DNA of 64,000 nt from an uncultured Spirochaetota bacterium (lineage in GTDB: Bacteria; Spirochaetota; Spirochaetia; SZUA-6; Fen-1364), in the NCBI GenBank assembly GCA_963734545.1, contig CAVTHO010000008.1, positions 96,001-160,000 on the forward strand. The letters are read 5' to 3'. The stretch's first letter is position 1; each line of letters starts with the position of its first letter. The position numbers and the translations under genes are program-made. Shown piece after piece: positions 5,401 through 56,974 of the stretch. The notes beneath the pieces were generated by a model, which had not been told where the DNA came from, searched no databases, and was given only the letters and a program-made list of their open reading frames with translations.

Positions 5401-5468
5401 TGTCGGAGAAATTCTACAGACAAAGCGTTCCCGGTTCGACGCGGTCGTGAGACGTGTGCGTGTACAAT
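5401..5468 (+). promoter_or_regulatory. TGT-N12-ACA palindrome plus -10 box upstream of the PRC-barrel gene
   Basis: TGTCGGA-GAAA-TTCTACA at 5401-5418; TACAAT at 5463-5468. Confidence 0.65.
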
Positions 5469-5487
5469 CGCCCCGGAGGCAAAGGCA

Positions 5488-6309
5488 TTGTACAGAAAAG
5501 CAAGAAGCCTCAGCCGCATGCGGGTACTGACGCCGGATGAAGAAATCGGTCGCTGCCGGGGCGTGCTCTTCGACGATCAATCGTGGTCGGTTCGGCACCT
5601 TGTCGTCGAAACGGGCGAGGAGCTGGGCGCCCGTACTATTCTCATCTCGCCGTCTTTCGTCGACGGTATCGAGGAGGAAAAGGGATCCATCCGCATCTCT
5701 CTCACCAAGGCGCAGGCAGCCGCTCAACCGGACATAGATTCCGACATGCCGGTTTCCCGACTGAAAGAAGCAGAGCACGGGAGAGCCGCGCTCTACATGC
5801 CTTTTTGGAGTGGAAGCGGGGCTCCCCACGGAGAGTTCCTCGTGTCCGACTCCGTCTCGAGTCGGTCGGTGGGCGGCATATCCTCCGGGCGTTCGTTCGA
5901 TCCTCACCTGAGAAGCTCGGAGGAGGTCATGAGGTACCGCGTTCACGCGAGGGACGGGCGCATCGGACGCGTCCGTGACTTCATGGTCGACGAAGCTGAC
6001 TGGCTCATACGGCACATTGAGGTGAGAATCCGCCGCTGGCCTCGCGCCAGGGAAGTCCTTCTCTCGCCCCTCTGGGTAGTGCGGGTCAGCTGGCGTGATC
6101 AAGCGCTGGCCGTTTCTCTCAGCCGGGAGCAGGTCGGGGGTGCGCCGCAATGGAACGCTTCCTCTCAGTCCGTGCGGGACTACGAGACCGGCCTGCTCGT
6201 CAACAGCGCTTTGCCCGCAGCAGAGCCCTGGTTCAGCCCGCCGAAAAGACAGGCAGAGACACCAAAAAAGCGCATCTCAACGGATGATCCGGACAGCGAA
6301 CACAGATGA
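5488..6309 (+). CDS. Tandem PRC-barrel domain protein
   Basis: Two IG.V.D...D...W..R..VV repeats and DPHLRS; TTG start after GGAGG. Confidence 0.8.
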   Translation: MYRKARSLSRMRVLTPDEEIGRCRGVLFDDQSWSVRHLVVETGEELGARTILISPSFVDGIEEEKGSIRISLTKAQAAAQPDIDSDMPVSRLKEAEHGRAALYMPFWSGSGAPHGEFLVSDSVSSRSVGGISSGRSFDPHLRSSEEVMRYRVHARDGRIGRVRDFMVDEADWLIRHIEVRIRRWPRAREVLLSPLWVVRVSWRDQALAVSLSREQVGGAPQWNASSQSVRDYETGLLVNSALPAAEPWFSPPKRQAETPKKRISTDDPDSEHR

Positions 6310-6321
6310 CTGCCCCTTCGG

Positions 6322-6729
6322 TCACCTTTTGGTCTTAAACCAGTCAAAAAACCGGGCGCGTTTCGGCTCCGGAGCATTCTGCGGCTCGCGATCCTTCCCG
6401 CCGGACTGCGAGGATTCGTCGATCCCCGCGGAGGCGTCCGAGGCCGCATCGACGACGGACTCCCGGGCGGCGAGTACGCGCTCACGCTGAGCAAGCGCCT
6501 TGTCCTTCTTCTCCAGACCCTTCCGTCTCTGCCGCTGCAGGAACCGACTCACGCAGAGGAAAAGCGAATACACGACTCCGAGAGCAAAGCTCACAAGGGC
6601 GAGCGCCATTGTCGGCACCTCTTCGAACCTGGCGCCGAACAGGCTGAACGAGGTCGTGAATCGGACGTTGAACGCGACGAGCACAGCCAGGAGAACGAGC
6701 AGCACCGCGCTGACAATAGCCTGCACCAT
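6322..6729 (-). CDS. LapA/DUF1049-like membrane protein
   Basis: Two N-terminal TM helices followed by a charged coiled coil. Confidence 0.6.
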   Translation of the reverse strand: MVQAIVSAVLLVLLAVLVAFNVRFTTSFSLFGARFEEVPTMALALVSFALGVVYSLFLCVSRFLQRQRRKGLEKKDKALAQRERVLAARESVVDAASDASAGIDESSQSGGKDREPQNAPEPKRARFFDWFKTKR

Positions 6730-6750
6730 GACGGCTCCCTCTCTGACCTG

Positions 6751-7164
6751 CTACAGGATGACCGCTGCGGGGAAGAGAAAATGAAGAAGACCGACGGCGA
6801 CGCCGACGATTCCGGCAGGGACGCGATAGGTCAACACGGCCTTGGAGAGCTTCTCCCCCTGCGCTCCTCTGCTTTCCACTCTCTGGCGGAACGCCTCGAC
6901 CAGGAGGGCCAGGCCCTGCGCGATTCCCACCAGCGAGGGAAGCAGATCCCCGATGACGGGAACCGAATCTCCCGGGGCCCGCACGAAGAACGTGATCACC
7001 CCGATGCCAACGGCGATCAAGCCAATGACAATCAGTGCAGTCCTGTTCTCGCGCATGCTTTTGAACGACGAGAGAAGCGCGAACCTGTCCCCCAGGTAGT
7101 CCCCTGCGAGGGTAAGGCCGGCAACGATATTGATGAACACTGATAACAGGTAGAATTGAGCCAT
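6751..7164 (-). CDS. 137-aa four-TM hypothetical protein (paralog of 4821-5234)
   Basis: ATG with AGGAGG RBS; hydrophobic; same length and motifs as the paralog. Confidence 0.8.
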   Translation of the reverse strand: MAQFYLLSVFINIVAGLTLAGDYLGDRFALLSSFKSMRENRTALIVIGLIAVGIGVITFFVRAPGDSVPVIGDLLPSLVGIAQGLALLVEAFRQRVESRGAQGEKLSKAVLTYRVPAGIVGVAVGLLHFLFPAAVIL

Positions 7165-7187: not shown

Positions 7188-7254
7188 AGTATAATCAATT
7201 CGTATTCACCAGATGTCATCAGGGCAATGACTTTGCTGTAGAATTTGCGGGGGT
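7188..7254 (-). promoter_or_regulatory. Regulon promoter (half palindrome, TGTCAT-N7-ATGAC site and -10 box)
   Basis: TGTAGAA at 7237-7243; TGTCATC-AGGGC-AATGACT at 7214-7232; TATACT (minus strand) at 7193-7188. Confidence 0.6.
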
Positions 7255-7314: not shown

Positions 7315-9039
7315 ATGAATGCCATATACAAGATTCTCACCAATCTCTACGGAGCCGGGGCCGCCAGAGCGATCCTGCCCGGGATTGAGCGCGCCACAGC
7401 GAACGCCCGCCGCCGGGTGCCGGCAGGACGTGTGACAGGTTTCGATCAGAGCGACAGCGTTCTCATCACCTATGCTGACATCCTCCAGGAGCCGGGAAAA
7501 TCTCCCCTGCAGACATTATGGGAGTTCTGTGAAGAGTACCTTGTGGACGTGACCAGCTGCGTTCACCTCCTCCCATTTTTCCCTTTTTCGTCGGATGACG
7601 GGTTTTCGGTCATCGATTTCCGCGCCGTCGATTCTACGAATGGAACGTGGGAGGACATTGGAAGGTTCCGTCGGAGCTTCCGCCTCATGTTCGACGCGGT
7701 CTTCAATCACGTCTCTGCCCGCAGCGGCTGGTTTCAGGGATTCCTCCGCGACGACTCGGGCGCCCGCAATATGTTCATTGTCGTCCCCGAAGGGAGCGAT
7801 CTTTCGATTGTGGTTCGGCCGCGGTCCCATCCCCTTCTTACCCGGTTCCAGACCCCTTCAGGTCCCAGGCGCGTATGGACGACGTTCAGTCCGGACCAGG
7901 TGGATTTGAACTATGCCAACCCGGAAGTCCTCGCCCGGATCGTGGAAACCCTGTTGTTTTACGTCGAGCACGGCGCGGAGCTTGTCCGTCTGGACGCCAT
8001 TGCATACATCTGGAAAGAAGTGGGGACCCGATGCATAAATCTGCCGCAGGCCCATCTCATTGTGCAGCTCTTTCGGTCAGTGCTCGATGCGGTAGCCCCT
8101 CACGTGGCGCTGGTAACGGAGACGAATGTCCCTCACGAGGAGAATATCTCCTACTTCGGAGACGGGACCAATGAAGCACAGCTCGTTTACAATTTCCCCC
8201 TGCCCCCCCTTGTGCTGCACGCGTTTATCACGGAAAGCGCCGCCGCACTGGCCCGATGGGCGGCTGACCTGTCGCCGCCGTCTCCCTCGACGACCTTCCT
8301 CAACTACCTCGCCTCGCATGACGGAATAGGCGTGGTTCCCGTCAAGACCATCCTTCCCGAGGCCGATATCCAGCTCCTGATAGACAGGACATTGGCGCGC
8401 GGGGGCCTTGTATCGTACAAGGCCGGTACGGACGGAACGCTGAGCCCCTACGAGCTGAACATCAACTACTGGGACGCGCTCGCGGATCCGGGCGGAGAAA
8501 CGCCTCCGGACACGCTCGTCCAGCGATTCCTTGCGGCGCATGGAATCATGCTCGCGCTGCGCGGAGTGCCGGCCATCTATTTCCACAGCCTTTTCGGATC
8601 CACCGGGTGGCCCGAAGGGGTGGCGCTCACCGGCAGCAAGCGCGCGATCAACAGGCAGAAATGCGCACGCTCCCTGCTCGTCGAGGAGCTGCAAGATGTC
8701 GGTTCGCGGCGCGCGCGTGTTTTTTCCGGGCTGAGGCGGCTCCTTGCCGCCCGTTCCTCCTCACGTTGTTTCCATCCGCAGGGGGCGCAGCGGGTGCTGC
8801 CGGCCGAGGGCGCCGTTTTCGCGGTCCTTCGTGTCGCGCCAGACGACACGGACGGGGTGCTTTGCCTGCAGAACGTGTCCGGCAAACAACAGGTCGCGGA
8901 AGTGGACTGGGAGGACATATGGGGATTCGTGCCGAGCGAGCTGAAGGATCTCGTTTCGGGGAGGCTTCTGGCTGTCACAGATTCCCAAGGGGTGGCGCTC
9001 GAGCCATATGAAGTCGCGTGGCTGCAGGCAAAGGTCTAG
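7315..9039 (+). CDS. GH13_18 sugar phosphorylase, probable glucosylglycerate phosphorylase
   Basis: SSDDGFS, WTTFSPDQVDLN, RLDA, TETN, ASHDGIG and PYELN (E-type loop A) motifs. Confidence 0.85.
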   Translation: MNAIYKILTNLYGAGAARAILPGIERATANARRRVPAGRVTGFDQSDSVLITYADILQEPGKSPLQTLWEFCEEYLVDVTSCVHLLPFFPFSSDDGFSVIDFRAVDSTNGTWEDIGRFRRSFRLMFDAVFNHVSARSGWFQGFLRDDSGARNMFIVVPEGSDLSIVVRPRSHPLLTRFQTPSGPRRVWTTFSPDQVDLNYANPEVLARIVETLLFYVEHGAELVRLDAIAYIWKEVGTRCINLPQAHLIVQLFRSVLDAVAPHVALVTETNVPHEENISYFGDGTNEAQLVYNFPLPPLVLHAFITESAAALARWAADLSPPSPSTTFLNYLASHDGIGVVPVKTILPEADIQLLIDRTLARGGLVSYKAGTDGTLSPYELNINYWDALADPGGETPPDTLVQRFLAAHGIMLALRGVPAIYFHSLFGSTGWPEGVALTGSKRAINRQKCARSLLVEELQDVGSRRARVFSGLRRLLAARSSSRCFHPQGAQRVLPAEGAVFAVLRVAPDDTDGVLCLQNVSGKQQVAEVDWEDIWGFVPSELKDLVSGRLLAVTDSQGVALEPYEVAWLQAKV

Positions 9040-9100
9040 GAAATTCTACAAGAACTTCATTCCACGAATGACACCCCCGGCCGCGGGCGAACGCTACTCT
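9033..9100 (+). promoter_or_regulatory. Regulon promoter upstream of the ATP-grasp gene
   Basis: GGTCTAG-GAAA-TTCTACA at 9033-9050; TGACA at 9069-9073; TACTCT at 9095-9100. Confidence 0.6.
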
Positions 9101-9159: not shown

Positions 9160-10134
9160 ATGGCGATTGTCATAATCCGCTCTCCCGCCCACAAACCGTG
9201 GAGGAGCAGGGGGACGTATCGGTTGATCGAGGCCGGCCTGAGGCGAAGGTGGGAGAATGTATACTCGATTCGTGCCGCCGACGAAGTGGAGTTGAACGCC
9301 CGCCTGCAGCCCGGCGGTTCCGCTCCTCCTCCTTTCGTTTTCAACATCGCTGAGTACCTTGACGAAAGACACACGCATGGATTCATTCCCGGCCTGCTCG
9401 ATTCATGGGGTATCCCGCATCTCGGCTCATCCGCGGCCTCTGTTTCCAGGTGTCTTGACTGGGGACTGGCCAGGGAACTTCTCTTGCAAAAGGGCTTGCC
9501 GACGCCTCGCTCTTTCGTCACGAAGCCGCCCGATCCGCAGATGCATGCACATGCCGAATCCATAGGATACCCCCTCCTGGTCAAACCCCTGCGGAAGGTC
9601 GGACGAGCGGGGGTCGGCAAAGCCATTCTTGCGCACGACCCCGAAACCCTGAAAGAAGCAGTTCGGCGGCTGTCCCGCACATATCTTCGACCGCTTCTGG
9701 TTGAAGAGTACATCGACGGAGAACACATCCGTGAGTTCAAGGTTGGAGTTGTCGGGAACACGAGGCGCATGCATCTTCCGATCGAGATCGATTGGGCGCG
9801 TATGAGCATGAATGCGCGGATATCAGGCATTGATGCGATGAGGATAGACCCCGAGATCATGAAACCGGTACTGGAATCGGGAACCGCTGCAGCCCTCCAC
9901 GACCTCGCGGACCGAACATTCGACGCGCTGGAGGCATCGGATCTCGCGCGAGTCGACATCCGGGCCAGAGGCGATCAACCGTTCGTACTCGGCATCAATG
10001 TGCTGCCAGGTCTGGGTCCGAGCAGCGTTCTGCCGCTGGCCGCATGGAGACTTTACGGACTGGATCATGGCGATTTCATTCGACTGCTCGCAAAGGAGTC
10101 AATCATGCGCCAGGGTTTGCTCGCTATTGCGTGA
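9160..10134 (+). CDS. D-Ala-D-Ala ligase-like ATP-grasp protein (degenerate active site)
   Basis: FNIAE, YPLLVKP, LVEEYIDG, ARVDIR and INVLPGL motifs. Confidence 0.75.
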   Translation: MAIVIIRSPAHKPWRSRGTYRLIEAGLRRRWENVYSIRAADEVELNARLQPGGSAPPPFVFNIAEYLDERHTHGFIPGLLDSWGIPHLGSSAASVSRCLDWGLARELLLQKGLPTPRSFVTKPPDPQMHAHAESIGYPLLVKPLRKVGRAGVGKAILAHDPETLKEAVRRLSRTYLRPLLVEEYIDGEHIREFKVGVVGNTRRMHLPIEIDWARMSMNARISGIDAMRIDPEIMKPVLESGTAAALHDLADRTFDALEASDLARVDIRARGDQPFVLGINVLPGLGPSSVLPLAAWRLYGLDHGDFIRLLAKESIMRQGLLAIA

Positions 10135-11477: not shown

Positions 11478-11495
11478 TGTCGAATTTTTTCTACA
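11478..11495. promoter_or_regulatory. Near-perfect 18-bp palindrome between divergent genes
   Basis: TGTCGAA-TTTT-TTCTACA; TACCTT at 11539-11544 on the + side. Confidence 0.65.
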
Positions 11496-11565
11496 TCGGT
11501 GGATGAAAGTAGGTATGGCTTCTCACCATCATAGAACGTACCTTGTCCATGGAGGAAAGACGGAA

Positions 11566-11935
11566 ATGCGAAAGCCACGCCATTTCCTCGCGTCGGCGAT
11601 CTCCCGGCTGCCAGGCGTGAGGACAATTGCCTTGATCGGCAAAAGCGGCACAGGAAAAAGCTTTCGCGCGCGGATCATAGCTGAAAAATAGGGAATAGAA
11701 CTGATTGTCGACGACGGCCTTCTCATCATGGGCGGCAGCAACGAGGGACGAGCTGATGACTGCGTTACGACATCGACGCAGGCATCGGCACGCCATACCC
11801 ATGCCGGCGGTTCATATCAGGCTTCCGTTTCTCTCCTCGATCCTGGAGAAATTCTCGGGACTGTTGTTCGATGAGATCATGCTCACGGTCGAAAACATAG
11901 GCCCCGCCGGAGGGCCTGAGCTCGACCGAGGCTGA
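11566..11935 (+). pseudogene. P-loop ATP-binding protein remnant (premature stop and internal deletions)
   Basis: LIGKSGTGKSFRARIIAEK*GIELIVDDGLLI, then ATRDELMTALRHRR..HAIPMPAV and EKFSGLLFDEIMLTVE in another frame. Confidence 0.65.
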
Positions 11936-12021
11936 CCATGGCGGCACACATGGATTCCCTTGCTTCGAGGGGACCAAGACGCTATCATTCCCGAACTCGT
12001 TCGCAAGGAGCCGACGTCAGG

Positions 12022-13245
12022 ATGCGATTTTCGCTGCCCACATTCACGCGCGCCATCATCTCCTCGGCCGGCAGGCTCTTCCAACCGCGGCCCAGGACGG
12101 GATCCGCAAAAGCATCGCGGGCGGAGACTGGTCCATACGTGAGTCGAATCGTGTCCGACGCGATGCTTCTGAACGAAATTCCGTCTCCGACGGAACACGA
12201 AGCGGCGCGGACCGAGTACATCCTCCAGAGACTAGGCGAGTTCGGCTATCCGAATTGCTCGCTTGACGAGTTCGGCAACGTCACTGCCATCGTCCCCGCG
12301 CGCGAAAACATCGATGAGCACGTCCTCCTGTTCGCGGACATCCGGTGTGAAGACTACTCACCCATTGACAGCATGACCCGCCTGGAGCCCGACCGCGTAG
12401 TCGGACAAGGCATCGCGGAAAGCGCCATCGGCGCCGCCGGACTCATGGTGCTTGCCGAGTATCTTGCTCGAAACGAAATTCAGTACAATCGGCCCGTGAT
12501 TTTCCTGTTCACTTCCTTCGACCCGGGAGAGCGCGAAACGCAGCCCCTCGAGCTCTTCATGCAGAGTTGGAAGGAGCGTGTCCGTTTTGCGGGTCACGTC
12601 CGGGGTCTGGACCTCGGACGCATTGAGGACAGCCCGCTGGGTACGTGCAAGCTGTCCATCGAGATCCGCACAGAGCAGCGGGAGGTATTCGGAGCGGAAC
12701 GCGCGATATCCGCCATCAGGGTGATCTCAACTATTGCGAGCAGGCTCGGAAGCATCCACTGGGACAGCGCGAACGACACGTTCCTCAACATTGCACGCGT
12801 CGAGGCGGGAGTTGGTTTTGGGTGGCACGCTTCGGAAGGCGTCCTGGAGCTGGAAGTGTTCTCACCGAGCGCCGGCGCGCTGGACATGGCAAGGAAGGCG
12901 GTGGAGGCGACGATCCGCGGCGGCGCGGAAGAATTGGGCGCTTCCGTGGACATCGCTGTCAAGGCCTTCCTCCCTGCCGGCAACCCGCAGATCAACGCGG
13001 AGCTGAACACGATCGTGAGGGGCGTGCACGAGCGGCTCCGCGTCAAATCCGTTCCCGTCTCTCTGCCAGGGTACGCCTCATTCCTCAACTCCCTCGGCAT
13101 CCCCGCGGTGACGCTCGGTATGACCACCGGCAGGAAGACACTAGCGGAGGAATACATCGAGATCCGACCCCTGGAGACGGGGTTTCGTCAGCTGCTGGCA
13201 TTCCTGGACGACTGCGCCGGATGGACCGAGGACGCGCATCGGTGA
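12022..13245 (+). CDS. M20/M25/M40 metallopeptidase-like protein lacking the metal ligands
   Basis: EIPSPT.HE..R, DEFGNV, dimerisation domain, GIPAVTLG; stop overlaps the gpgS start. Confidence 0.7.
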   Translation: MRFSLPTFTRAIISSAGRLFQPRPRTGSAKASRAETGPYVSRIVSDAMLLNEIPSPTEHEAARTEYILQRLGEFGYPNCSLDEFGNVTAIVPARENIDEHVLLFADIRCEDYSPIDSMTRLEPDRVVGQGIAESAIGAAGLMVLAEYLARNEIQYNRPVIFLFTSFDPGERETQPLELFMQSWKERVRFAGHVRGLDLGRIEDSPLGTCKLSIEIRTEQREVFGAERAISAIRVISTIASRLGSIHWDSANDTFLNIARVEAGVGFGWHASEGVLELEVFSPSAGALDMARKAVEATIRGGAEELGASVDIAVKAFLPAGNPQINAELNTIVRGVHERLRVKSVPVSLPGYASFLNSLGIPAVTLGMTTGRKTLAEEYIEIRPLETGFRQLLAFLDDCAGWTEDAHR

Positions 13246-14222
13246 AAGGAGAGAGTGCCATCCTGCGTGCCACGTTCCATCACGAGGACTTCAAGGACAA
13301 GGCGGAGCTCGTGAGGCAGAAATTGAGCCAGGGTCTGAAGATCTCTCTCGCGTTCCCCACTCTGAACGAAGAGGCGACCATCGGCAAGGAGGTCCTGGTA
13401 TTCAAGACCGAGCTGATGGACCGATTCCCGCTCCTGGACGAGATCGTCGTTATTGATTCGGGCTCCTCGGACGGAACGCGCGATGCGGCGACGTCCAACG
13501 GGGCACGGGTGTTCTCCTCGCGCGACATCCTGAAGAGTCACGGCACGTTCCGCGGCAAGGGGGAGAACCTCTGGAAAAGCCTGTACGTCCTCGAAGGCGA
13601 CATCATTGTCTGGATCGACGCGGACATCAGCAACATTTCTCCCAAGTTCGTCTACGGTCTGCTGGGTCCCCTTCTGCGGGATCCGCGCATCAGCTATGTG
13701 AAAGCATTCTACGAGCGGCCTTTCCGCTCCTCGGGCGAGCTTCTTCCCGTGGGGGGAGGCCGGGTCACTGAAATCCTCGTGCGCCCGCTTTTCTCCCTCT
13801 TCTATCCTGAACTGGCGGGCCTCGTTCAGCCCCTCAGCGGAGAGTACGCCGGCCGCAGGTCCCTGCTGGAGCAGCTGCCCTTTTCCGTAGGATACGGAGT
13901 GGAGCTGGGTCATCTTCTCGATATCTACCATGGCGCGGGGATCCAGGCCATCGCCCAGGTCAACATGGATCGGCGGGTCCATCGAAACCAATCGCTGCAG
14001 TCCCTCGGGAAGATGTCGTTCGGGATCCTTCAGACCTTCCTCGGCAGGCTCGGAAAGTACGGGGATGGGCGGCTGCCGGTGGACATCGGCAGTCGCTACC
14101 TCTCCGTGTCATTCACCGACGCGCAGCCGCGTATGGATCAGGTCGAAGTTTCCTCCGAGGAGAGGCCGCCGATGATTGAAGTGGATGAATACAGGAAGAA
14201 GTTCCATCCCGCTCCTTCATAG
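13242..14222 (+). CDS. gpgS: Glucosyl-3-phosphoglycerate synthase (GT81)
   Basis: PTLNEEATIG, DSGSSD, GKGENLWKS, WIDAD, GGRVTE, QPLSGEYAGRR and GYGVE motifs; GTG start at 13242. Confidence 0.9.
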   Translation: MKGESAILRATFHHEDFKDKAELVRQKLSQGLKISLAFPTLNEEATIGKEVLVFKTELMDRFPLLDEIVVIDSGSSDGTRDAATSNGARVFSSRDILKSHGTFRGKGENLWKSLYVLEGDIIVWIDADISNISPKFVYGLLGPLLRDPRISYVKAFYERPFRSSGELLPVGGGRVTEILVRPLFSLFYPELAGLVQPLSGEYAGRRSLLEQLPFSVGYGVELGHLLDIYHGAGIQAIAQVNMDRRVHRNQSLQSLGKMSFGILQTFLGRLGKYGDGRLPVDIGSRYLSVSFTDAQPRMDQVEVSSEERPPMIEVDEYRKKFHPAPS

Positions 14223-14290
14223 GTAGTATAAATTCGACAGAAGAATCGTTGAATTGCTGACTCCTCGTCGCATCCGGCAGCGGCTATTCT
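14222..14290 (+). promoter_or_regulatory. Regulon promoter upstream of the asnB operon
   Basis: GGTAGTA-TAAA-TTCGACA at 14222-14239; TGACT at 14258-14262; TATTCT at 14285-14290. Confidence 0.6.
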
Positions 14291-14453
14291 TTCCTCAACT
14301 GTACAGCGAAGCAAGGCCCGCAGAAAGCACGTTCCGGGTCGAAGGATTGTCCTTGCCCAAGAGTGAATGAGCGACTTCATCCGCCAATCCCATTGTCTTT
14401 GGCTGCACCGCAGCCGAGGATCGCGCTATTCCACCCAGAAAGGAGCTCTGCGA

Positions 14454-16016
14454 ATGTGTGGTGTTGTGGCAATGCAGGGCCAGACCGACAAGCAACAGGT
14501 ACATGAAATGATGGCCCGGATCAAGCACCGGGGGCCAGACGGAGAGGGTCTCCTGGAGATCGGCCAGTCCCTGTTGGGACATGTGCGGCTGGCAATCCTG
14601 GATCTATCAGGCGGCGCGCAACCGATGACCAACGAGACCGGCGACCTGGCTGTCTCGTTCAATGGTGAGATATACAACCACCTCGATCTCCGCCGTGGTC
14701 TGCAAGATCGACATGTTTTCCGCACCCGTTCCGACACCGAGGTTCTCCTTCATCTCTACGAGGACGTCGGTGAGGACATGCTGGATCGCCTTGACGGCAT
14801 GTTTGCCATTGCCGTGGCGGGGAGGCATGGCCTTCTCCTGGCGAGAGACCCTCTTGGAATCAAGCCCCTGTACATCGGAAGGAGAGCCGGCTCATTCTAC
14901 GCCGCAAGCGAACTGAAGGCCTTCCCAGCGGTAGACACCATCGAGATGCTGCCGGCAGGTCATGCCGTCCTGGCAGGCGGCACGCCTTGGCGATTTGCCC
15001 GTCCGTTTCCTCCCCAGACGTTTCTGAGGTCCCCGACTCTGGAAGAGATACTCGCCGAAATCCGTCTTCGACTGGAGAAAGCCGTCCAGAAGCGTCTCAT
15101 GAGCGACGTGCCTGTAGGGGTCTACCTTTCCGGCGGACTCGATAGCAGCCTCGTAGCGGCATTGATGCGGCCGCACACGGTCACGTTGCATTCGTTCACC
15201 GCCGGCATGGCGGGTGCTCCCGACCTCGACGCCGCGCGGCAGGTCGCGCACTACTTGCACACGGAACATCATGAGTTGGTGTACGCCTCCGAGGACGTGC
15301 GTCGAGTGCTTCCAGAAGTGATTCGGCAAATGGAATCGTTTGATGCGCCGCTGGTGCGGTCGGCTGTCCCGATGTACTTCATCTCCAAGTTGGCCGCCGA
15401 GCACGTCAAAGTCGTGCTTTCCGGCGAAGGCGCGGATGAGCTTTTCGCGGGCTACAGCTACCTCTCCCGCATCGGGGGCCGGGCCAGACTGAAGAAAGAG
15501 CTGGCAGACATCACGCTTCGACTCCAGGACACGAATCTCCAGCGCGCCGACCGCATGAGCATGGCACACGGTCTGGAAGCCCGGGTGCCCTTCCTCGACA
15601 TGAACTTGGTTCGCTACACGAGCCGTCTCCCTGCCGAATGGATCGAACCCCGGCCGGACCGTCCGGAGAAATGGATACTGCGCGAGGCCTGCAAGGGCCT
15701 CCTGCCGGATGAGATCATCAATCGCAGGAAGATGAAGTTTTCGGAGGGCGCGGGATCATCCGAGGTGGTGGCAGAAATCGCCCGCGGCTCAATCGGAACC
15801 AAGCAGTTTGAACGCGAGAAGCAGATTGCCAAGGACATTGTGTTGAGATCGCCGGAGGAATTGTACTACTACCGCATCTGGAGGGATGTCATGGCAGCGC
15901 ACATAACGCCGAGCATGGTGGGGCGAACGTTGGACAGGTCCGCGGCGGCAGGTGAAGCCGCCCTCGACAATACCGATGAGGACATGAAGGAGCACAGACG
16001 GCGATGGCAGGACTGA
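14454..16016 (+). CDS. asnB: Asparagine synthase (glutamine-hydrolysing) family amidotransferase
   Basis: MCG start, HRGPD, NGEIYN, SDTE, LSGGLDSS, SGEGADELFAGY and RVPFLD motifs. Confidence 0.9.
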   Translation: MCGVVAMQGQTDKQQVHEMMARIKHRGPDGEGLLEIGQSLLGHVRLAILDLSGGAQPMTNETGDLAVSFNGEIYNHLDLRRGLQDRHVFRTRSDTEVLLHLYEDVGEDMLDRLDGMFAIAVAGRHGLLLARDPLGIKPLYIGRRAGSFYAASELKAFPAVDTIEMLPAGHAVLAGGTPWRFARPFPPQTFLRSPTLEEILAEIRLRLEKAVQKRLMSDVPVGVYLSGGLDSSLVAALMRPHTVTLHSFTAGMAGAPDLDAARQVAHYLHTEHHELVYASEDVRRVLPEVIRQMESFDAPLVRSAVPMYFISKLAAEHVKVVLSGEGADELFAGYSYLSRIGGRARLKKELADITLRLQDTNLQRADRMSMAHGLEARVPFLDMNLVRYTSRLPAEWIEPRPDRPEKWILREACKGLLPDEIINRRKMKFSEGAGSSEVVAEIARGSIGTKQFEREKQIAKDIVLRSPEELYYYRIWRDVMAAHITPSMVGRTLDRSAAAGEAALDNTDEDMKEHRRRWQD

Positions 16017-17002
16017 GGATCGGCTTGCTGCAAAAAAAACGCGGAAACTACGCGCTCCAGGAGAAATATGCCGGTCAAAGCGGGGTCGTCGACAACACAA
16101 CGGCCGAGGTTGAACATCACAGACAAGCGCTGACCGACGCCGGCTATCGGCCTCACATCATCCATTGGGGACCCGATTTCGCCCGCGAGATTCGGGGTGT
16201 ACCGGTTGACCTTGTCTTCAATGTTTCCAGCCTCGTCGAGGCCGCGATGCTTGAGGAAATGGAAATTCCTTACGTCGGATCCGACACCCCCGCAATCGCC
16301 GTTACGTTGAATAAGTCGCTGGCAAAAAGGCTCTGGCAGAAAGAAGGGATACCGACGTCACCTTTTCGCGTGGCCGGGTCGGCAAAGGACTGTGAGATTT
16401 TTCGGAAGAATCCGCCATTCGAATATCCGCTTTTTATCAAACCAACGGCCGGCCGAGGAAGCGCGGGAATCGACCCAACATCGATCGTCCATGATTACGA
16501 TCAGTTGGTCAGCGGAGTCGTACGACGACTGGAAGCCATCAAGCAGCCGGTTCTCATAGAAAAACTGCTGGTGGGAAAAGAAGTCACCCTGGGGGTTGTT
16601 GGAAATCTTGAGGCGCGGGTCCTGCCCCCGCTCGAGATTGCATATCGAAAAGGAGATGTCACGCTGACTTTTGAAAAAAAAGAATTGGACGACGATTCAT
16701 TTTTCTGTCCCGCGCGATTGACCTCTGAAGAGTGGCGTTTGATGCAGACCCTGACGCTTCAAGCCTATCACGCTTTGGGCATGAAGGACTTCGGCAGAAT
16801 AGATACGATATTGACCAACGAAGGGCCTTTCCTGCTGGAGGGCAATGCCTTCGCAGGATTGATGTGCACGCCAAAAGAGAAGCCTCGCAGTTACATGGGC
16901 TTTATGGCTCGTGCGGACGGGATGGACAGAAAGGATCTGCTCCATGAGATCATCCAGGGTGCCGTCAGGAGATTGAGCGCAGCCTCCAGGGGTGCGGTTT
17001 AG
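16004..17002 (+). CDS. D-Ala-D-Ala ligase-like ATP-grasp enzyme
   Basis: IPYVGS, NKSLAK, FIKP..GRGSAGI, GRID and LLEGN motifs; overlaps the asnB end. Confidence 0.85.
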   Translation: MAGLRIGLLQKKRGNYALQEKYAGQSGVVDNTTAEVEHHRQALTDAGYRPHIIHWGPDFAREIRGVPVDLVFNVSSLVEAAMLEEMEIPYVGSDTPAIAVTLNKSLAKRLWQKEGIPTSPFRVAGSAKDCEIFRKNPPFEYPLFIKPTAGRGSAGIDPTSIVHDYDQLVSGVVRRLEAIKQPVLIEKLLVGKEVTLGVVGNLEARVLPPLEIAYRKGDVTLTFEKKELDDDSFFCPARLTSEEWRLMQTLTLQAYHALGMKDFGRIDTILTNEGPFLLEGNAFAGLMCTPKEKPRSYMGFMARADGMDRKDLLHEIIQGAVRRLSAASRGAV

Positions 17003-17119: not shown

Positions 17120-19024
17120 ATGGAAGGGAGCACGAGCCCTTCGGACCGGTTCGGCCTCATCAAGCCCAGCGTGGATGCGCACGTGCTGGGAGTCACCTCG
17201 ATCGGAGAATTGCTCGTCGAATGCGGCAAAGAGGTGGCCTATGCCCCCGCGGAGGTGTGCCGCGCCTGTGACAGGCCCGAAGGGGAACGCGAGTCCGCCG
17301 CAATCGAAACATGGATTCGCGGCGAGCGGATCACGCAGCTCGGGTTCTCCTACCGCCTGAGCCCGGAAGACGGCGTGGAGCTTCTTGCGCGCCTCACGCG
17401 CCAGCTCGAGCGCCGCTCGTTGTTTGCAGACCAGGGAGGGATGGTGCGCGCGCTCTATTTCGCCGGCCTCCCCGCCGCATGCCGGCTGGCCAAGGAGCGG
17501 GTGCCCCGGATCGCGGCGGTCTTCGACGGGGAGGAAACTCCCCAGGAAACCCTTGCACGGCTCGGCATGCGGCGCGCCGCCCTGCCCGAAGAGTCGGCGC
17601 GCGCGCTGGCGTATGACAGTGACAGGCTCGCGTTCGGTGAAGAGATAGTCCGCAGGGCGGACTACCTCGCACTGCCTCCGCTCGACCGGAGCGGCTACCC
17701 GGGATTCGGAAAGGCAGAAGACAGCGTCCGTGCACGGCTCGGCCACGCCGCGCTGGCGGGGGCGCTCCCCCTGTATCGTGCCCACATGGGAGAGTACCTG
17801 CCGGACCGGGAAGAAGCGGTCAGACGCTTCCTCCAGTGGACCCGGGAGATGGCCGCCCGGGGTCACCTCGATGTCCTCTCCATCGGGAGCTCGCAGCTCT
17901 CCCAGTCCAGGTTCGGAGAGGACTGGGGTGACAGCACCAACGGCGGCGGGGTGCCGCTGAGCTCTCCCGAGGAGTTTGCCGCCGCATGGGCCGCGGCGCG
18001 CCCCATGCTCGTCCGCTCGTATGCCGGCACCAGGAACCTGGCGGCAATGGCGCGGATGAACGAGGAGACGATCCACAACGCGTGGCATGCCCTGTCGATC
18101 TGGTGGTTCTGCAAAACGGACAACCGTGGTCCCTATCCGCTGCGGGAAAACCTCGACCAGATGCTCGCCGCCCTTCGCTATATCGCGTCGGTCGGCACAC
18201 CCTTTGAGCCGAATGTTCCCCACCACTTCGCCTTCCGCGGCGCCGATGACGCGACGTATGTCATTTCGGGCTACGTCGCTGCCCGGGCCGCGAAGGCGGC
18301 GGGCGTCCGCTGCCTGATCGCGCAGAACATGTTGAACACGCCGAAGTACACCTGGGGCGTGCAGGACCTGGCAAAGTCCCGGGCGCTCCTGCGCCTTCTC
18401 CGCGGTCTGGAAGACAACACCTTCACCGTTGTCCTGGAAACCCGGGCCGGCCTCGACTACCTTTCCGCGGACCCCTTCAGGGCAAAGTCCCAGCTTGCCG
18501 CGGTCTCGGCCCTCATGGACGACATCGAGCCGCGCAATGACGGCAGTCCGCAGATCGTGCACGTGGTGAGCTGGACCGAGGCAACTCGATTTGCCGATCC
18601 TTCCGTGATTGCCGAAAGCGTTCAGATTTCCAGGCAGGCTCTGGCCGAGTACCGCAGACTGCGGAGGAAGGGACTCATCGACGACATGACGGAAAGCCGC
18701 GAAGCGAATGCCCGCACCGAGGAGCTCGTGGTGGAATGCCGTGCCGTCATTCAGGCAATCGAGAGGTCGATCCCTGATGCATGGACCGCGGCCTCTGCGT
18801 TGTACCGCATGTTTGCCGCCGGCTTCCTCCCGGTCCCGTACCTCTGGGAGTGCAGGGAGGAGCTCACCGGGGCAGTGGACTGGCGCACACGCCTCATCAA
18901 GGGCTCGGTGCGTCTTGTGGATGAGAGGGGAATCCCTTTGACGGCGGCACAGCGTATTGAAAAAGCCCTTCACAACCTGCGGACCCTTCCCCGGTCGAGT
19001 GCCCTCCATGCCGCGGAACAATGA
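17120..19024 (+). CDS. Cobalamin-binding protein, fused glutamate-mutase S+E-like
   Basis: DAHVLG (DxHxxG), GFSYRL and YFAG in the B12 domain; C-terminal TIM-barrel with GlmE-like segments. Confidence 0.7.
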   Translation: MEGSTSPSDRFGLIKPSVDAHVLGVTSIGELLVECGKEVAYAPAEVCRACDRPEGERESAAIETWIRGERITQLGFSYRLSPEDGVELLARLTRQLERRSLFADQGGMVRALYFAGLPAACRLAKERVPRIAAVFDGEETPQETLARLGMRRAALPEESARALAYDSDRLAFGEEIVRRADYLALPPLDRSGYPGFGKAEDSVRARLGHAALAGALPLYRAHMGEYLPDREEAVRRFLQWTREMAARGHLDVLSIGSSQLSQSRFGEDWGDSTNGGGVPLSSPEEFAAAWAAARPMLVRSYAGTRNLAAMARMNEETIHNAWHALSIWWFCKTDNRGPYPLRENLDQMLAALRYIASVGTPFEPNVPHHFAFRGADDATYVISGYVAARAAKAAGVRCLIAQNMLNTPKYTWGVQDLAKSRALLRLLRGLEDNTFTVVLETRAGLDYLSADPFRAKSQLAAVSALMDDIEPRNDGSPQIVHVVSWTEATRFADPSVIAESVQISRQALAEYRRLRRKGLIDDMTESREANARTEELVVECRAVIQAIERSIPDAWTAASALYRMFAAGFLPVPYLWECREELTGAVDWRTRLIKGSVRLVDERGIPLTAAQRIEKALHNLRTLPRSSALHAAEQ

Positions 19025-20201: not shown

Positions 20202-20203
20202 AG

Positions 20204-22732: not shown

Positions 22733-22857
22733 AAACACCAGGCCCCGAAAAGCCTCAGAGGAGAAGGAGCCTGATCCCCAGCCGCGCCTTCTCAGAAGAG
22801 CTGACGCGCGGGCCTTCGCGCAAACCCGGCCGCCTGCCGGCCGTCCGGGAGAGTATT

Positions 22858-23051: not shown

Positions 23052-23055
23052 AATA

Positions 23056-33688: not shown

Positions 33689-33755
33689 ATGATAGCAAAG
33701 CCTCCTCCCCGTGCCGTCAGCCGGGCAATGAAAAGGATGTAGAATTTTTATGACG
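33689..33755 (-). promoter_or_regulatory. Regulon promoter of the racemase operon
   Basis: TGTAGAA-TTTT-TATGACG at 33738-33755; minus-strand CTGACG, 20 nt, then TATCAT at 33694-33689. Confidence 0.65.
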
Positions 33756-45773: not shown

Positions 45774-47105
45774 TCAGGACCAGGCGTCCCTCTCCTTCAG
45801 CCGGCTCTGCAGCGTCCGCCGGCTGATGCCCAGCTCGGCGGCTGCCTTCGTCCTGTTGCCCCCGTGCCGGGCGAGCACCTTCTCGATCAGCTCTCTCTCC
45901 TGGTCTCTCAGCCTCCCCTTCTTGGGTGTGCGCGCAGGGGACGCGAACGGCTCCCCCAGGTCACGCGCGCTGATGCGGTCTCCCGCGCAGAGGATGTGCG
46001 CGCGCTCGATCCTGTTTTCCAGCTCGCGCACGTTGCCGGGAAACGCATAAGCCTGAAGGCGCGCCAGCGCGTCCGGCTCGAGCCCGCTTACCTTTCGACC
46101 CCTTTCCCTGTTCAGCTTTTCCATGAACAGCCCCGCAAGCCGGGGAATGTCCTCGCGCCTTTCACGCAGCGGGGGGATCTCTATACGGATGACGTTCAGC
46201 CGGTAATAGAGGTCCTCGCGGAACTTCCCCTGCTTCAGGAGCGCTTCCAGGTCTCGATTGGTTGCGGCCACGATGCGGGCGTTGATCGGGATGGCGGTGG
46301 TGCCCCCGAGACGCTGCACGCGCCGCTCCTGCAGCACGCGCAGGAGCTTCACCTGAAGATGCATCGGCATGTCCCCGATCTCGTCGAGAAAGAGCGTTCC
46401 CGAGGAGGCGAGCTCCAGCATCCCGCGCTTGCGATCAGCCGCGCCGGTGAAGGCGCCCTTCTCATATCCGAAGAGCTCGCTCTCCAGCAGCGTGTCAGGG
46501 ATGCCGCCGATGTTGATGGCAACGAAAGGCCCGTTCGGCGTGACGGAGAGCGCGTGGACCAGCCGGGCAATGACCTCCTTGCCAGTGCCGCTTTCCCCGG
46601 TGACAAGCACCGTGGAGGGTGTCGGTGCAACCCTTTCCACGAGCAGGCGCACCTCGCGCATCTTCTCCCCGTCCCCGATCCACGCGTCAGCGCCGCGGGC
46701 AGATGCATCCGCGGCCTGCCGGCCTGCTTCCGCCTGGCTGGCCAGGGCGCTTTCCGCGAACAGCCTGCGCAGGCGCAGGAGAAGCTCCTCGGGGTCGAAT
46801 GGCTTCACCAGGTAGTCGCGCGCGCCGAGCTTCATTGCGGAAACGGCGTCACGCACATCGCCGTAGGCGGAGATGATGATCGTGGGCACAGGGGGGCCCG
46901 CGTCCCGCAGCCAGGTGAGCAGCGCGAGCCCGTCCATCGCCGGCATCCTCAGGTCCAGCACGAGACCGTCGAACACATCGGTCTCCAGAAGCGCCCGGGC
47001 CGCGATCCCGTCCGCTGCCGTAGCGGTTTCGATGCCTTCGGCGGCAATATAGGCCGCGATGGATTCCCGGATATTCTTCTCGTCGTCGGCAATCAGCACC
47101 TTCAC
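45774..47105 (-). CDS. Sigma54-dependent response regulator (NtrC/ZraR/AtoC family)
   Basis: ADDE, DLRMP, GESGTGKE, GAFTGA, DEIG and Fis HTH. Confidence 0.92.
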   Translation of the reverse strand: MKVLIADDEKNIRESIAAYIAAEGIETATAADGIAARALLETDVFDGLVLDLRMPAMDGLALLTWLRDAGPPVPTIIISAYGDVRDAVSAMKLGARDYLVKPFDPEELLLRLRRLFAESALASQAEAGRQAADASARGADAWIGDGEKMREVRLLVERVAPTPSTVLVTGESGTGKEVIARLVHALSVTPNGPFVAINIGGIPDTLLESELFGYEKGAFTGAADRKRGMLELASSGTLFLDEIGDMPMHLQVKLLRVLQERRVQRLGGTTAIPINARIVAATNRDLEALLKQGKFREDLYYRLNVIRIEIPPLRERREDIPRLAGLFMEKLNRERGRKVSGLEPDALARLQAYAFPGNVRELENRIERAHILCAGDRISARDLGEPFASPARTPKKGRLRDQERELIEKVLARHGGNRTKAAAELGISRRTLQSRLKERDAWS

Positions 47106-54925: not shown

Positions 54926-54979
54926 GGGAAGGGCTGACGCCGTGGCGCGTCGCCCCTCCCCTTCCTGCCGCTGCCCGGC

Positions 54980-55975
54980 TCACTTGCCCATCATGGCTGC
55001 CTGAACGGAAAAGATGGGGCAGTTGACGTCTGCCACGCCCTGCGCAAGCACCATGGAGTCCATGACCGAGTCCAGCTTCATGACTTTGTCGAAATACATG
55101 TTGTCGTAGGGGCTGACCGACCACAACGGAGAATAGCCCTTTTGACCCGGGAGGGTGGCGACGACGTTGTGCGTCTGCATAGACATGGCCGCCATCTTGA
55201 ATCCCGACGAGGGACCGCCGTTTGCCATGCCCGGATTGACATTGAACGTCACATAGATCGGCGAAACAGGCACCCTGCCATCGGCCGTCACCATGAGAGG
55301 CGCCTCGGTGAAATTGAAGTATGTCACGATCTTGTTCCGATACCACCCCTGGTGCAGGCCGGTATCGCTGCCGCTGAGACGGTGCTGCGCCGTCGAGCCG
55401 TCGGGAACGATCGGGCAATTCACGATCGTGTTCGTCGGCGTTGCCGCATACCCCGCGTCCTTCAGCGCCTGAAGGCTCCCGATGGAGTTCGGAGTGTAGT
55501 CTGCGGGAACGGCGACCCGATTGATCTGCCAGAAATCGTTGTACCCGGGATCGCCGGGGATGACGTCCACGATATTGAGCTGGCCCGCGACCGGGGAGCT
55601 CTCCCCCGCGCGGTACAGCACGTAGATCGGGGCAGGGATGGTGGGCTGCACGTCGAAGTTGTAGTACATGACGGTCTCGCCATGCGGACCGAGCCCCGTG
55701 GTGACGAATGGCGGCGTGTCGAAGTCCACCGGTACGTTGGGTCCCGGCAGATGGTTCATCGAATCGCGCATCTGCAGATGACCTGATGCGGAGCTGAACC
55801 GGTCGATGGACACCCGCTCGGCCTTCATGGGGTCCATCATCATGGGCGATTCCTTCATCATTCCCTTGTCCGCCGTCATCGTGCCGGCGGTGGTCGCGCA
55901 GCCCGTGACGATGAGGGCAAGAGCGGCAATGCCCGCCGCCAGGACACGTGGGACGAATTGCGAAGTCTGCATCAT
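54980..55975 (-). CDS. Met-rich lipoprotein with two internal repeats
   Basis: VTGC lipobox; MM clusters; repeated PIYV...PG..GY...W...VNCPI. Confidence 0.75.
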   Translation of the reverse strand: MMQTSQFVPRVLAAGIAALALIVTGCATTAGTMTADKGMMKESPMMMDPMKAERVSIDRFSSASGHLQMRDSMNHLPGPNVPVDFDTPPFVTTGLGPHGETVMYYNFDVQPTIPAPIYVLYRAGESSPVAGQLNIVDVIPGDPGYNDFWQINRVAVPADYTPNSIGSLQALKDAGYAATPTNTIVNCPIVPDGSTAQHRLSGSDTGLHQGWYRNKIVTYFNFTEAPLMVTADGRVPVSPIYVTFNVNPGMANGGPSSGFKMAAMSMQTHNVVATLPGQKGYSPLWSVSPYDNMYFDKVMKLDSVMDSMVLAQGVADVNCPIFSVQAAMMGK

Positions 55976-56077
55976 ATGTTCCTCCTGGTGCCACAAGGTA
56001 CGGAGGAATCCTCACGCAACTCTCACGAAAGGTTAAAGTGTGTGTCACAGTCCGGCCGACAGCTCGGGAGCGCCTGT

Positions 56078-56851
56078 TCAGCGCCCGCCGTTGGACAGGG
56101 TGCTCGCCGCGACGCGGGTGCCTTCTGACAGGGAGTGGTCGAGGAACCAGAGGTAGAGCCGCGAATCCCGGTAGGTCATGGTCCAGCAGTCGTGCGCCAG
56201 GTCCGGGTAGACCGTGAGCCGGGCATCGGCGCCGGACCTCCGGAGAGTGTCGACCATTTTCCTCGACTCGGAAACCGGAACATTGGCATCCTGCGCCCCG
56301 TGAAATGCCCAGATCGGGATGCCGGCGAGGCGCGGGACCTCGGGAAGATCGCTCATACCGCAGATCGGCGCGATGGCGGCAAACGTGCGGGGAAACGCGG
56401 CCGCCGTCTGCCACGTTCCATAACCACCCATGCTGAAACCCGTCAGATACACGCGGTCCCGGTCGATCCGCAGCATCGATTCGACGGAATCGAGGACGCG
56501 CTTCACGATTCCGGGCGGCCAATGCATATTCCGCGGACACTGGGGAATCACGGCAACGAACGGGAAGTCTCCCAGCTTCTCCGCAAAGGTCAGGAGAGCG
56601 AGATCCTGGAGCAGGGACGGATCGTCACCCCGCTGCTCGCTGCCGTGAAGGAAGAGGATGAGGGGCCACTGGGCGGCGGCATCCCGCGCGTACGAGCGTG
56701 GAACATAGAGGAGATAGTTCACGTGATCCGCGATCGAATGGGCGAGGGACAAGCGGTGCACCGAGCGGCCAATGGGGAGCCCCTCGTCTGCCGCCGATGC
56801 GGAGGTCGCAATCAAGGCGGCGAGGATCAGGCCCGACCATCCATGCTTCAT
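56078..56851 (-). CDS. Exported alpha/beta hydrolase (esterase/peptidase)
   Basis: LFLHGS, GFSMG, HGAQD and HDCW motifs. Confidence 0.88.
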   Translation of the reverse strand: MKHGWSGLILAALIATSASAADEGLPIGRSVHRLSLAHSIADHVNYLLYVPRSYARDAAAQWPLILFLHGSEQRGDDPSLLQDLALLTFAEKLGDFPFVAVIPQCPRNMHWPPGIVKRVLDSVESMLRIDRDRVYLTGFSMGGYGTWQTAAAFPRTFAAIAPICGMSDLPEVPRLAGIPIWAFHGAQDANVPVSESRKMVDTLRRSGADARLTVYPDLAHDCWTMTYRDSRLYLWFLDHSLSEGTRVAASTLSNGGR

Positions 56852-56857
56852 ATCCTG

Positions 56858-56974
56858 AGAATACCGCAAAGAGACTTCCGTGCCTGTCATGCAGGTAATG
56901 ACAGCATGTCATAGATTTTCGACAGAAGTCTCAACGATTCGCTGACGCGCCGCGCTCTCCCCGGTGCCTATCAT
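56858..56974. promoter_or_regulatory. Divergent regulon promoters sharing one palindrome
   Basis: TGTCATA-GATT-TTCGACA at 56907-56924; TGTCATG-CAGGT-AATGACA at 56885-56903; TATTCT (minus) at 56863-56858; TATCAT (plus) at 56969-56974. Confidence 0.7.

Follow-up and report, generated by a model that had tools for sequence, protein, structure and literature searches.

The DNA examined here is a stretch of 64,000 nucleotides (hereafter the window) from an uncultured Spirochaetota bacterium, whose source genome bin, G000, comprises 5.14 Mb at 62% G+C. The window covers positions 96001-160000 of contig C8 (G000:C8:96001-160000), and window positions are counted from its start. It contains eight promoters built around an 18-bp palindrome (P1, distal) that is followed at a near-constant distance by a TAnnnT box and, in seven of them, by a second palindrome (P2, proximal) in between; a ninth promoter of this composite type, C8:84385, lies 11.6 kb to the left of the window. 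These promoters have a common anatomy, are restricted to a genomic island, are conserved in relatives, and are linked to genes encoding a response regulator (RR) and a DUF2582 winged-helix (wHTH) protein.

Anatomy of the composite promoters

The original prediction for this window had listed sites resembling TGTMGAA-N4-TTCKACA at positions 5401, 7237, 9033, 11478, 14222, 33738 and 56907, and we found all seven in place. Six are full palindromes, differing from TGTMGAANNNNTTCKACA by one (5401), three (9033), zero (11478), two (14222), three (33738) and two (56907) mismatches, while 7237 is a half site with TGTAGAAT only. When up to three mismatches were allowed, the window gave 17 matches to TGTMGAANNNNTTCKACA as compared to 3.98 ± 2.17 in 100 shuffles, the chance control for this count, and none of the shuffles reached 17. 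Counting both orientations of each site, a TAnnnT box starts 43-45 nt past the palindrome in 8 of 14 (5401+, 7237-, 9033+, 11478+, 14222+, 33738-, 56907+ and 56907-), just as the eight gene-facing cases had been described; in the other six orientations a TAnnnT box was looked for at 40-50 nt and none was present.

A weaker second site had also been claimed at 20-22 nt before the -10 box. We found a YGAC word at this distance in seven of the eight boxed orientations, the exception being 11478+, but the site is more than a weak copy, as it forms a palindrome of its own, 19 bp long and in phase with P1 on the helix. If the TAnnnT box is assumed to occupy -12 to -7, with transcription start sites (TSSs) predicted about 7 nt past the boxes, then P1 (TGTMGAA-N4-TTCKACA, 18 bp) is centered at -64.5 to -66.5 and P2 ((T)GTCAT-N7-ATGAC(A), 19 bp) at -42 to -44, where it stands in place of a -35 element. 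The gap between P1 and P2 is 3-4 bp, and their centers were computed to be 21.5-22.5 bp apart in seven window promoters and C8:84385, which amounts to two helical turns and thus the same helical phase. In contrast to these boxes, whose positions are common to all nine promoters, the spacer from P2 to TAnnnT is G+C-rich and not conserved. No -35 hexamer occurs at the canonical 17-nt distance upstream of the TAnnnT boxes, in line with the original prediction. Since TTGACA- and TATAnT-type words are among the most enriched intergenic words of G000, ordinary promoters of this genome apparently look canonical, whereas the nine promoters lack a -35 element at the canonical distance.

Promoters and the genes they face

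The leftmost promoter, at 5401..5468 (+), consists of P1 at 5401-5418, P2 at 5423-5441 (ending in CGACG) and the -10 box TACAAT at 5463-5468, with gaps of 44 and 21 nt from P1 and P2 to the -10 box (given in this order below), and faces a PRC-barrel gene at 5518-6309 (PF05239, 33 bits, 5518-6306). On the opposite strand, the promoter at 7188..7254 (-) has its P1 half site at 7237-7254, P2 at 7214-7232 (AGTCATTGCCCTGATGACA) and TATACT at 7188-7193 (gaps 43 and 20), and faces genes for a 137-aa membrane protein (6751-7164) and a LapA-domain protein (6322-6729), both assigned with Pfam. A third promoter at 9033..9100 (+), with P1 at 9033-9050, P2 at 9055-9073 and TACTCT at 9095-9100 (gaps 44 and 21), precedes an ATP-grasp gene at 9160-10134, again by Pfam. 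The only perfect 18-bp palindrome, at 11478-11495, belongs to the promoter at 11478..11544 (+), with TACCTT at 11539-11544 (gap 43) and no YGAC-type P2, and of the eight promoters its function is the least certain. Past it lie an M20/M28-like gene (11938-13245) and gpgS (13242-14222), the latter identified by NF010496 (374 bits versus a cut-off of 262). A 41-aa open reading frame (ORF) at 11568-11691 (+) with the Walker A motif GKSGTGKS has a good ribosome-binding site but an early stop, with a change of frame ahead of 11938; this P-loop ORF, situated between the gpgS operon and the perfect palindrome, is probably a gene fragment.

The promoter at 14222..14290 (+) combines P1 at 14222-14239, P2 at 14244-14262 and TATTCT at 14285-14290 (gaps 45 and 22), and is followed by an asnB-like gene (14367-16016), an ATP-grasp gene of the D-Ala-D-Ala-ligase type (16004-17002), a gene for a 634-aa protein without a Pfam or NCBIfam match (17120-19024), an opine-dehydrogenase-like gene (19008-20201) and an MscS-like gene (20204-20890). 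The last three genes are 86-93% identical in one relative, G014, where they lie directly 3' of the RR gene, and the operon as a whole may serve to make an unusual solute of the amide or opine type. Further to the right, the promoter at 33689..33755 (-), with P1 at 33738-33755, P2 at 33715-33733 and TATCAT at 33689-33694 (gaps 43 and 20), faces an ornithine-racemase-like gene at 32278-33420, 269 nt away, followed by an MFS gene (30625-32181) and an MscS gene (29723-30595). A small ORF at 33421-33531 (-), ...MARAEGMSGRDLLSEIVQDAVSRMGLGA, ends where the ornithine-racemase-like gene begins, the two overlapping by ATGA, and may explain the long apparent leader past the 33689 box. We rejected the idea that this 269-nt leader is a small RNA (sRNA) target, as structure was not in excess (z +1.06) and no Rfam family matched. 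Just upstream of the same promoter is an nhaA-I riboswitch at 34045-34098 (-) (RF03057, 49.6 bits versus a gathering score of 37), a class that responds to lithium and sodium, followed by the Shine-Dalgarno sequence GGAGGAAGG and a 42-aa hydrophobic ORF at 33822-33950 (-), MDATTIFVIVIVALFLAAMVAFQVY....

Two divergent promoters share the P1 at 56907-56924. To the right, 56907..56974 (+) has P2 at 56929-56947 and TATCAT at 56969-56974 (gaps 44 and 21), and faces an OmpA-like lipoprotein gene at 57021-58853 with an orthologous site in the relatives G002 and G014; to the left, 56858..56924 (-) has P2 at 56885-56903 (TGTCATTACCTGCATGACA, a perfect 6+6 palindrome) and TATTCT at 56858-56863 (gaps 43 and 21), and faces an esterase gene at 56078-56851. 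The PRC-barrel, gpgS, esterase, OmpA-like, ATP-grasp and baeRF genes named as targets in the original prediction are what they were said to be. Its two asnB operons could not be confirmed: only one of 66 ORFs scanned matches Asn_synthase (14367-16016), and 33738- faces the ornithine-racemase-like gene instead.

Genome-wide distribution

To put the window in context, both strands of the 5.14 Mb genome were searched with a regular expression for the composite pattern (TTCKACA-N16-19-YGAC-N20-24-TANNNT) and with position weight matrices (PWMs) for P1 and for the whole composite, the latter with 18 informative columns and trained on all eight composite promoters; the reversed genome served as chance control for the regular-expression and P1 PWM counts. 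The bare palindrome at up to two mismatches is found 89 times in the genome, 17 of these in the 17.6% without gene calls, which is no intergenic enrichment, so the expectation that the motif would be enriched upstream of genes fails for the palindrome alone. It holds for the composite, which gave seven matches, all seven intergenic and all within C8:84,396-152,974, compared to one in the reversed genome. Seven of the eight training promoters scored 27.0-35.6 bits with the composite PWM (56907- went unscored because its gap is 1 nt shorter), and the next best genome match, at 21.3 bits, is inside a gene. The P1 PWM alone found seven matches at 19 bits or above, all intergenic and six of them in the island (one in the reversed genome), and no excess at 14 bits or above (32 versus 36).

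With the strong sites confined in this way, the regulon is a local one, in a block of about 70 kb, rather than the general stress regulon originally proposed. We rejected a genome-wide regulon given that neither the composite nor the P1 PWM found further strong sites, save for one isolated case on another contig. This is a near-perfect palindrome, TGTCGAATATATTCGACT, at C4:511779-511796 (24 bits with the P1 PWM), located between a DsbA-like gene and a gene for a 502-aa protein, and it has no P2 or TAnnnT in register.

Candidate regulators next to the window

The original prediction had held that the activator is not obviously encoded in the window, and our best candidate indeed lies 6.2 kb to the left of it. 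The promoter C8:84385, the seventh match of the regular expression, is followed on the same strand by the DUF2582 wHTH gene (C8:84463-84726), an OmpA-like gene (a paralogue of the one at window 57021-58853), a PAS sensor, a HisKA_3/HATPase/REC kinase and the RR gene (C8:89200-89832). The RR, of 210 aa, has a receiver domain (PF00072, E 2.1e-27, residues 4-116) complete with acidic pocket and phospho-accepting Asp, in which D8, D9, D54 and K104 are invariant in 14 orthologues, and a C-terminal GerE-type helix-turn-helix (HTH; PF00196, E 1.2e-16, residues 148-203). Its nearest solved chains are VraR, NarL, DesR and DevR, with DevR (3c3w) sixth. The kinase ORF directly upstream matches PF07730 (HisKA_3), HATPase_c and REC, as expected of a NarL/FixJ partner, and by its domains the RR is classified as a NarL/FixJ-type response regulator.

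The best NCBIfam model for the RR is UvrY/SirA/GacA (NF007018), but as it scores 165.9 bits against a cut-off of 280, the protein falls outside this equivalog. When comparing the recognition helix of the RR, LSPPTVATYRSRILTKL, with that of Escherichia coli K-12 UvrY (NC_000913.3), LSPKTVNSYRYRMFSKL, we found the common pattern SP.TV..YR.R..KL, which is absent from VraR, NarL and DesR, where TVK.HV... is read at this place. Within the RR helix, T179, T182, Y183, R184, R186 and K190 are invariant in the 14 orthologues.

For the DUF2582 protein, the structural model (pLDDT 80) is closest to dimeric DNA binders of the ArsR/SmtB type, namely SqrR (E 2.3e-4), HlyU, CadC and Rv0081. This family is without an assigned function. 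Judging by the search listings, the literature on DUF2582/PF10771 includes no work on its function, nor did a search for papers tying glucosylglycerate genes to a response-regulator box list any. The window itself encodes TetR, an ECF sigma factor, an NtrC-type activator, ArsR and a REC-PilZ-like protein; in relatives, not one of these regulators shows linkage to the sites. We discarded the window REC protein at 36447-37181 as a candidate because it has only a weak REC and a weak PilZ match, no HTH and no counterpart near the relatives' sites.

Conservation in relatives

The relatives available for comparison are uncultured Spirochaetota from soil and peat bins. Among 24 genomes of the same family, 20 have the wHTH gene, as compared to 2 of 36 from other families of the order. 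The P1 PWM, trained on G000 sites only, was applied to 45 wHTH-gene loci, 26 from Spirochaetota and 19 from other phyla (Ignavibacteriales, Zixibacteria, Fibrobacterota and others). A box above 14 bits was found 71-153 nt upstream of the wHTH gene at 21 of the 26 Spirochaetota loci and at none of the 19 others, the number expected by chance being about 0.01 (32 matches per 5.14 Mb, with about 2.2 kb examined). An RR homologue of at least 48% identity occurs in the same locus at 17 of the 26 Spirochaetota loci, again at none of the 19, and mostly ends 140-270 nt before the wHTH gene. Conversely, 24 of 32 RR matches of at least 51% identity are within 5 kb of a wHTH match.

The full composite, anchored on P2, could be recognized at 24 of the 26 Spirochaetota loci (17 by regular expression and 7 by eye), and in many relatives the two boxes are preceded, one step further upstream, by a third one that is perfect (TGTCGAATTCCTTCGAC). 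Only the boxes and the TAnnnT element are conserved. A second composite pattern gave 19 matches versus one control match in the 24 family genomes, compared to four versus four in the 36 genomes outside the family. When we turned the comparison around, a PWM made from 23 promoters of relatives only ranked 14222+, 9033+, 7237- and C8:84385 second to fifth in G000; rank one is an A+T-rich false match, and 5401+ came 15th of 191.

Gene order varies around the boxes. In many relatives, including G024 and G036, the order is RR, box, wHTH, while G014 has box, wHTH, kinase and RR followed by orthologues of window 17120-20890, and in G002 the box stands directly before the kinase-RR pair in an operon without a wHTH gene. 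In G036, a genome of another family than G000, the RR gene, box, wHTH gene, M20-like gene and gpgS follow one another on a single strand, which supports the proposed tie to osmolyte synthesis. Further recurrent targets in relatives are a CLC channel and a secreted WD40-like protein, the latter in four genomes. The WD40-like gene (...SGHRGAVLAIDHDD..GADGTVRIW...) was identified at L099, L121, L109 and L105 (genomes G012, G006, G007 and G003, respectively), and in each of these four relatives a well-formed composite promoter (GGTAGAATTAATTCGACAGGAGAATCATGCC...TACCTT) stands before it.

Proposed mechanism

We consider it probable that the RR encoded at C8:89200-89832 is an autoregulated two-component activator of the NarL/FixJ family that reads the boxes of a local stress and osmolyte island. 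A signal would be sensed by the membrane kinase encoded directly before the RR (with transmembrane (TM), PAS, GAF, HisKA_3, HATPase and REC segments), which would phosphorylate the RR. Two RR dimers, or three in many relatives, would then bind the boxes cooperatively, with the proximal dimer over the -35 position recruiting a housekeeping-type RNA polymerase to the TAnnnT box. The C8:84385 operon, with the DUF2582 wHTH, OmpA-like, kinase and RR genes, would provide self-amplification. The output would be the block of about 70 kb, comprising envelope proteins (OmpA-like, LapA-like and small membrane proteins), genes for glucosylglycerate- and amide-type solutes (gpgS, a GT4 gene like mannosylglucosylglycerate synthase, asnB, ATP-grasp and opine-dehydrogenase), MscS and CLC channels, the PRC-barrel protein and the esterase. 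The target genes and the neighbouring nhaA-I riboswitch suggest an ionic, osmotic or water-stress signal. A single activator, as the original prediction had it, is plausible for promoters with boxes at about -65 and -43 and no -35 element, and we infer that the RR is the protein that binds there and activates.

Several observations weigh against this proposal. The perfect palindrome at 11478 is the one without a YGAC-type P2, and the half sites of P1 and P2 are spaced differently, by 1 bp, and diverge in part of their sequence. Orientations 5401-, 7237+ and 11478- (toward baeRF) face genes but have no box in register, the gpgS operon of G003 has no box, and the operons for the hibernation factor (HPF) and an ATPase had to be rejected as direct targets, with no site in 2960-3490, 23420-23660 or 37175-37385. 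The sensor kinase of G000 is split into two ORFs (L001:10836-13197, equal to C8:86836-89197) within the GAF-like segment, one half with TM, PAS and half of GAF, the other with the rest of GAF, HisKA_3, HATPase and REC; both halves have counterparts in G014 and G002, and the split, located at C8:87780-87851, may be a frameshift, an assembly error or a pseudogene. The boxes are linked to the DUF2582 gene, whose product has a predicted ArsR/SmtB-like DNA-binding fold, no less tightly than to the RR gene. One relative, G016, has an RR orthologue without a wHTH match and no site in the 2.1 kb upstream of it, but as its contig ends there, this case is not informative. Moreover, the gene calls used throughout are crude (83% coding, with 17.6% of the genome uncalled), so that intergenic labels are approximate.

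Alternative explanations

The linkage of the wHTH gene raises the question of whether the DUF2582 protein (C8:84463-84726) itself binds the palindromes as a dimer and autoregulates, the RR being a mere neighbour or acting upstream of it. It is the first gene past the box at the 21 Spirochaetota loci with a P1 match, and its modeled similarity to dimeric ArsR/SmtB-type binders would suit such a role. However, homologues at the 19 loci from other phyla come without box or RR, although at 32-47% identity these could bind something else, and in G002 the box precedes a kinase-RR operon that has no wHTH gene. ArsR-type proteins are usually repressors that overlap promoters, not tandem activators at -65 and -43 without a -35 element. 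The TGT-N12-ACA frame and the recognition-helix match also favour a GacA-like RR, and we regard DUF2582 as the sole reader of the boxes as unlikely. Less likely still is that the two proteins share the promoter, with the RR on P1 and, on P2 ((A)TCAT-N7-ATGA(Y)), DUF2582 acting over the -35 region as a co-activator or gatekeeper. The two palindromes do differ in length (18 versus 19 bp) and core (TCGA/TAGA versus TCAT), and the RR and wHTH genes are paired at 24 of the 32 RR loci. On the other hand, TGTCAT half sites with P1 spacing occur inside P1 at 56907, 33738 and C8:84385 and in relatives, so that one protein can read both P1 and P2, and the secondary boxes of the mycobacterial regulator DevR are likewise degenerate (PMC3177182).

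A dimeric regulator encoded elsewhere, whether of the CRP/FNR type, the LysR type or the sigma-54 activator of the NtrC type in the window (45774-47105), appears just as improbable as such sharing. A center near -65 combined with a site over -35 would fit the RBS/ABS arrangement of LysR as well as class III CRP promoters, and TGT-N10/12-ACA frames are used by NifA and TyrR. But no -24/-12 element of the GG-N10-GC form stands in register at any of the nine promoters, in which the best matches to TGGCAC-N5-TTGCW have 3-5 mismatches at inconsistent positions. A sigma-54 reading of GGGCAATGACTTTGCT at 7217-7232 was rejected as well, since this sequence falls within the P2 of the promoter on the other strand and does not recur at the remaining sites. 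The NtrC-type activator and its kinase have no counterpart (at least 35% identity over half coverage) in 179 kb of site-bearing DNA of G014, G003 and G024, and at the loci examined the sites have no linked LysR or CRP gene, with no genome-wide search for such genes having been made. We hold it to be very improbable that the boxes are relics of duplicated promoter segments before paralogues, or chance, with no common regulator at all. The island does contain duplicated modules (OmpA-like, CLC, HPF with ATPase, 137-aa membrane protein and LapA-domain genes, each twice), and because some promoters precede paralogues (two OmpA-like and two 137-aa membrane proteins), part of their likeness is possibly by descent, which also counts against our proposal. 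Yet only the boxes are conserved while the spacers differ, the boxes stand before unrelated genes (PRC-barrel, ATP-grasp, asnB and esterase), and they are kept at the same distances across genera and families.

Comparison with known systems

TyrR and Spo0A, to which the sites had first been compared, turned out to be poor comparators. The TyrR box, as quoted in the original prediction, shares the TGT-N12-ACA frame with P1, and the Spo0A word TGNCGAA resembles one half site, but Spo0A boxes are 7-mers rather than 18-bp dyads, and no TyrR- or Spo0A-type protein is linked to the sites, the linked regulator being of the NarL/FixJ type. The closest described analogues are instead the tandem boxes of DevR/DosR and GacA's upstream activating sequence (UAS) of 18 bp, in that, judged by sequence, the promoter design appears DosR-like and the DNA-reading head GacA-like.

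According to PMC3177182, class I promoters of DevR carry a pair of boxes, each at least 18 bp long, that are separated by 3 bp, lie on one helical phase and are located at -42.5 and -63.5; cooperative binding requires the tandem arrangement, divergent promoters share boxes, secondary boxes are degenerate, and the regulon in Table 1 includes ctpF and otsB. In PMC13486717, the cryo-EM complex of DosR has a box centered at -43.5 beside a suboptimal -35, with DosR contacting sigma region 4 and alpha. As at the Mycobacterium tuberculosis class I promoters, for example that of tgs1-Rv3131, the system described here has a NarL-family RR with a HisKA_3-type kinase, and adjacent in-phase boxes 3-5 bp apart, of which, relative to the predicted TSSs, the proximal one would be at about -43, covering a poor -35, and the distal one at about -64/-65. 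At least two boxes of at least 18 bp in phase are found in seven window promoters and at C8:84385. The two systems are also alike in having a divergent promoter pair that shares a box (56907), in their autoregulation, which is presumed here, and in a regulon with a P-type cation ATPase and sugar-osmolyte genes, here judged by gene content. Unlike DevR/DosR, the candidate regulator has a GacA/UvrY-like recognition helix, belongs to Spirochaetota and has its targets clustered in one 70 kb block, and the sensor carries PAS and GAF domains and a C-terminal REC. The DosR box sequence also differs from the boxes here.

The GacA UAS, given as the 18-bp TGTAAG-N6-CTTACA in PMC4950607, shares the TGT-N12-ACA frame with P1, while the inner bases differ (AAG in GacA versus MGAA here). 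Its position, -75 for rsmY, is likewise upstream of the core promoter. GacA, however, uses a single UAS on Csr/Rsm sRNA genes, whereas the tandem boxes here reach -35 and face protein genes, and no Csr/Rsm RNA family reached its gathering score in the window. The kinase is of the HisKA_3 type with PAS and GAF and not BarA/GacS-like, and among the matches listed there is no Hpt. NarL itself reads 7-2-7 heptamer pairs, that is inverted half sites bound by a GerE-type HTH dimer, with multiple sites per promoter. The spacing here is 7-4-7 for P1 and 6-7-6 for P2, and both half-site sequence and recognition helix (STVKVHVKHMLKKM in NarL) differ.

The DosR parallel allows a bolder version of our proposal, which we consider possible but doubtful: that this is a DosR-like quiescence or desiccation switch of soil and peat spirochaetes, in which the GacA-like RR is obligately paired with DUF2582, first turning on DUF2582 as a second-tier regulator or co-factor, after which both would run the 70 kb island as a self-contained unit that remodels the envelope and supplies glucosylglycerate-type solutes, new amide-type solutes and ion channels. 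The ArsR-type Rv0081 is said to act as such a second tier under DosR. If true, DUF2582 would gain its first function, and sequence alone would have predicted a dormancy-type regulon outside Actinobacteria. Although the kind of mechanism is itself not new, the DevR-type design of tandem boxes at -43 and -64 would recur in another phylum, joined there to a head that reads DNA in a GacA-like way. Metagenome bins are all that is known of this lineage, and for it the nine promoters, the box pair and a candidate regulator with a candidate kinase make up a testable regulon, one that groups DUF2582, the 634-aa protein, the 137-aa membrane proteins and the asnB/ATP-grasp/opine-dehydrogenase operon with gpgS, MscS and CLC in one putative stress programme.

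Additional observations

A second hibernation-factor (S30AE) copy at 22755-23424 (-) is followed by only a 98-aa N-terminal fragment of a P-type ATPase, and is a truncated duplicate of the paired HPF and ATPase genes near the left edge of the window (148-2965, -). Outside the window, we also noticed the sequence ATTTGTTA, which occurs 34 times between genes and not once inside genes (C6:19-42787, C5:443-1278, C9:346548-351950 and C3:185297-187679). It closes a repeat of about 55 nt (...ggggacaactgcaacgATTTGTTAtg), found at intervals of 0.5-3 kb and in 22 copies on C6. These repeats resemble the attC sites of a large chromosomal integron whose cassette array has been split up at the ends of contigs.

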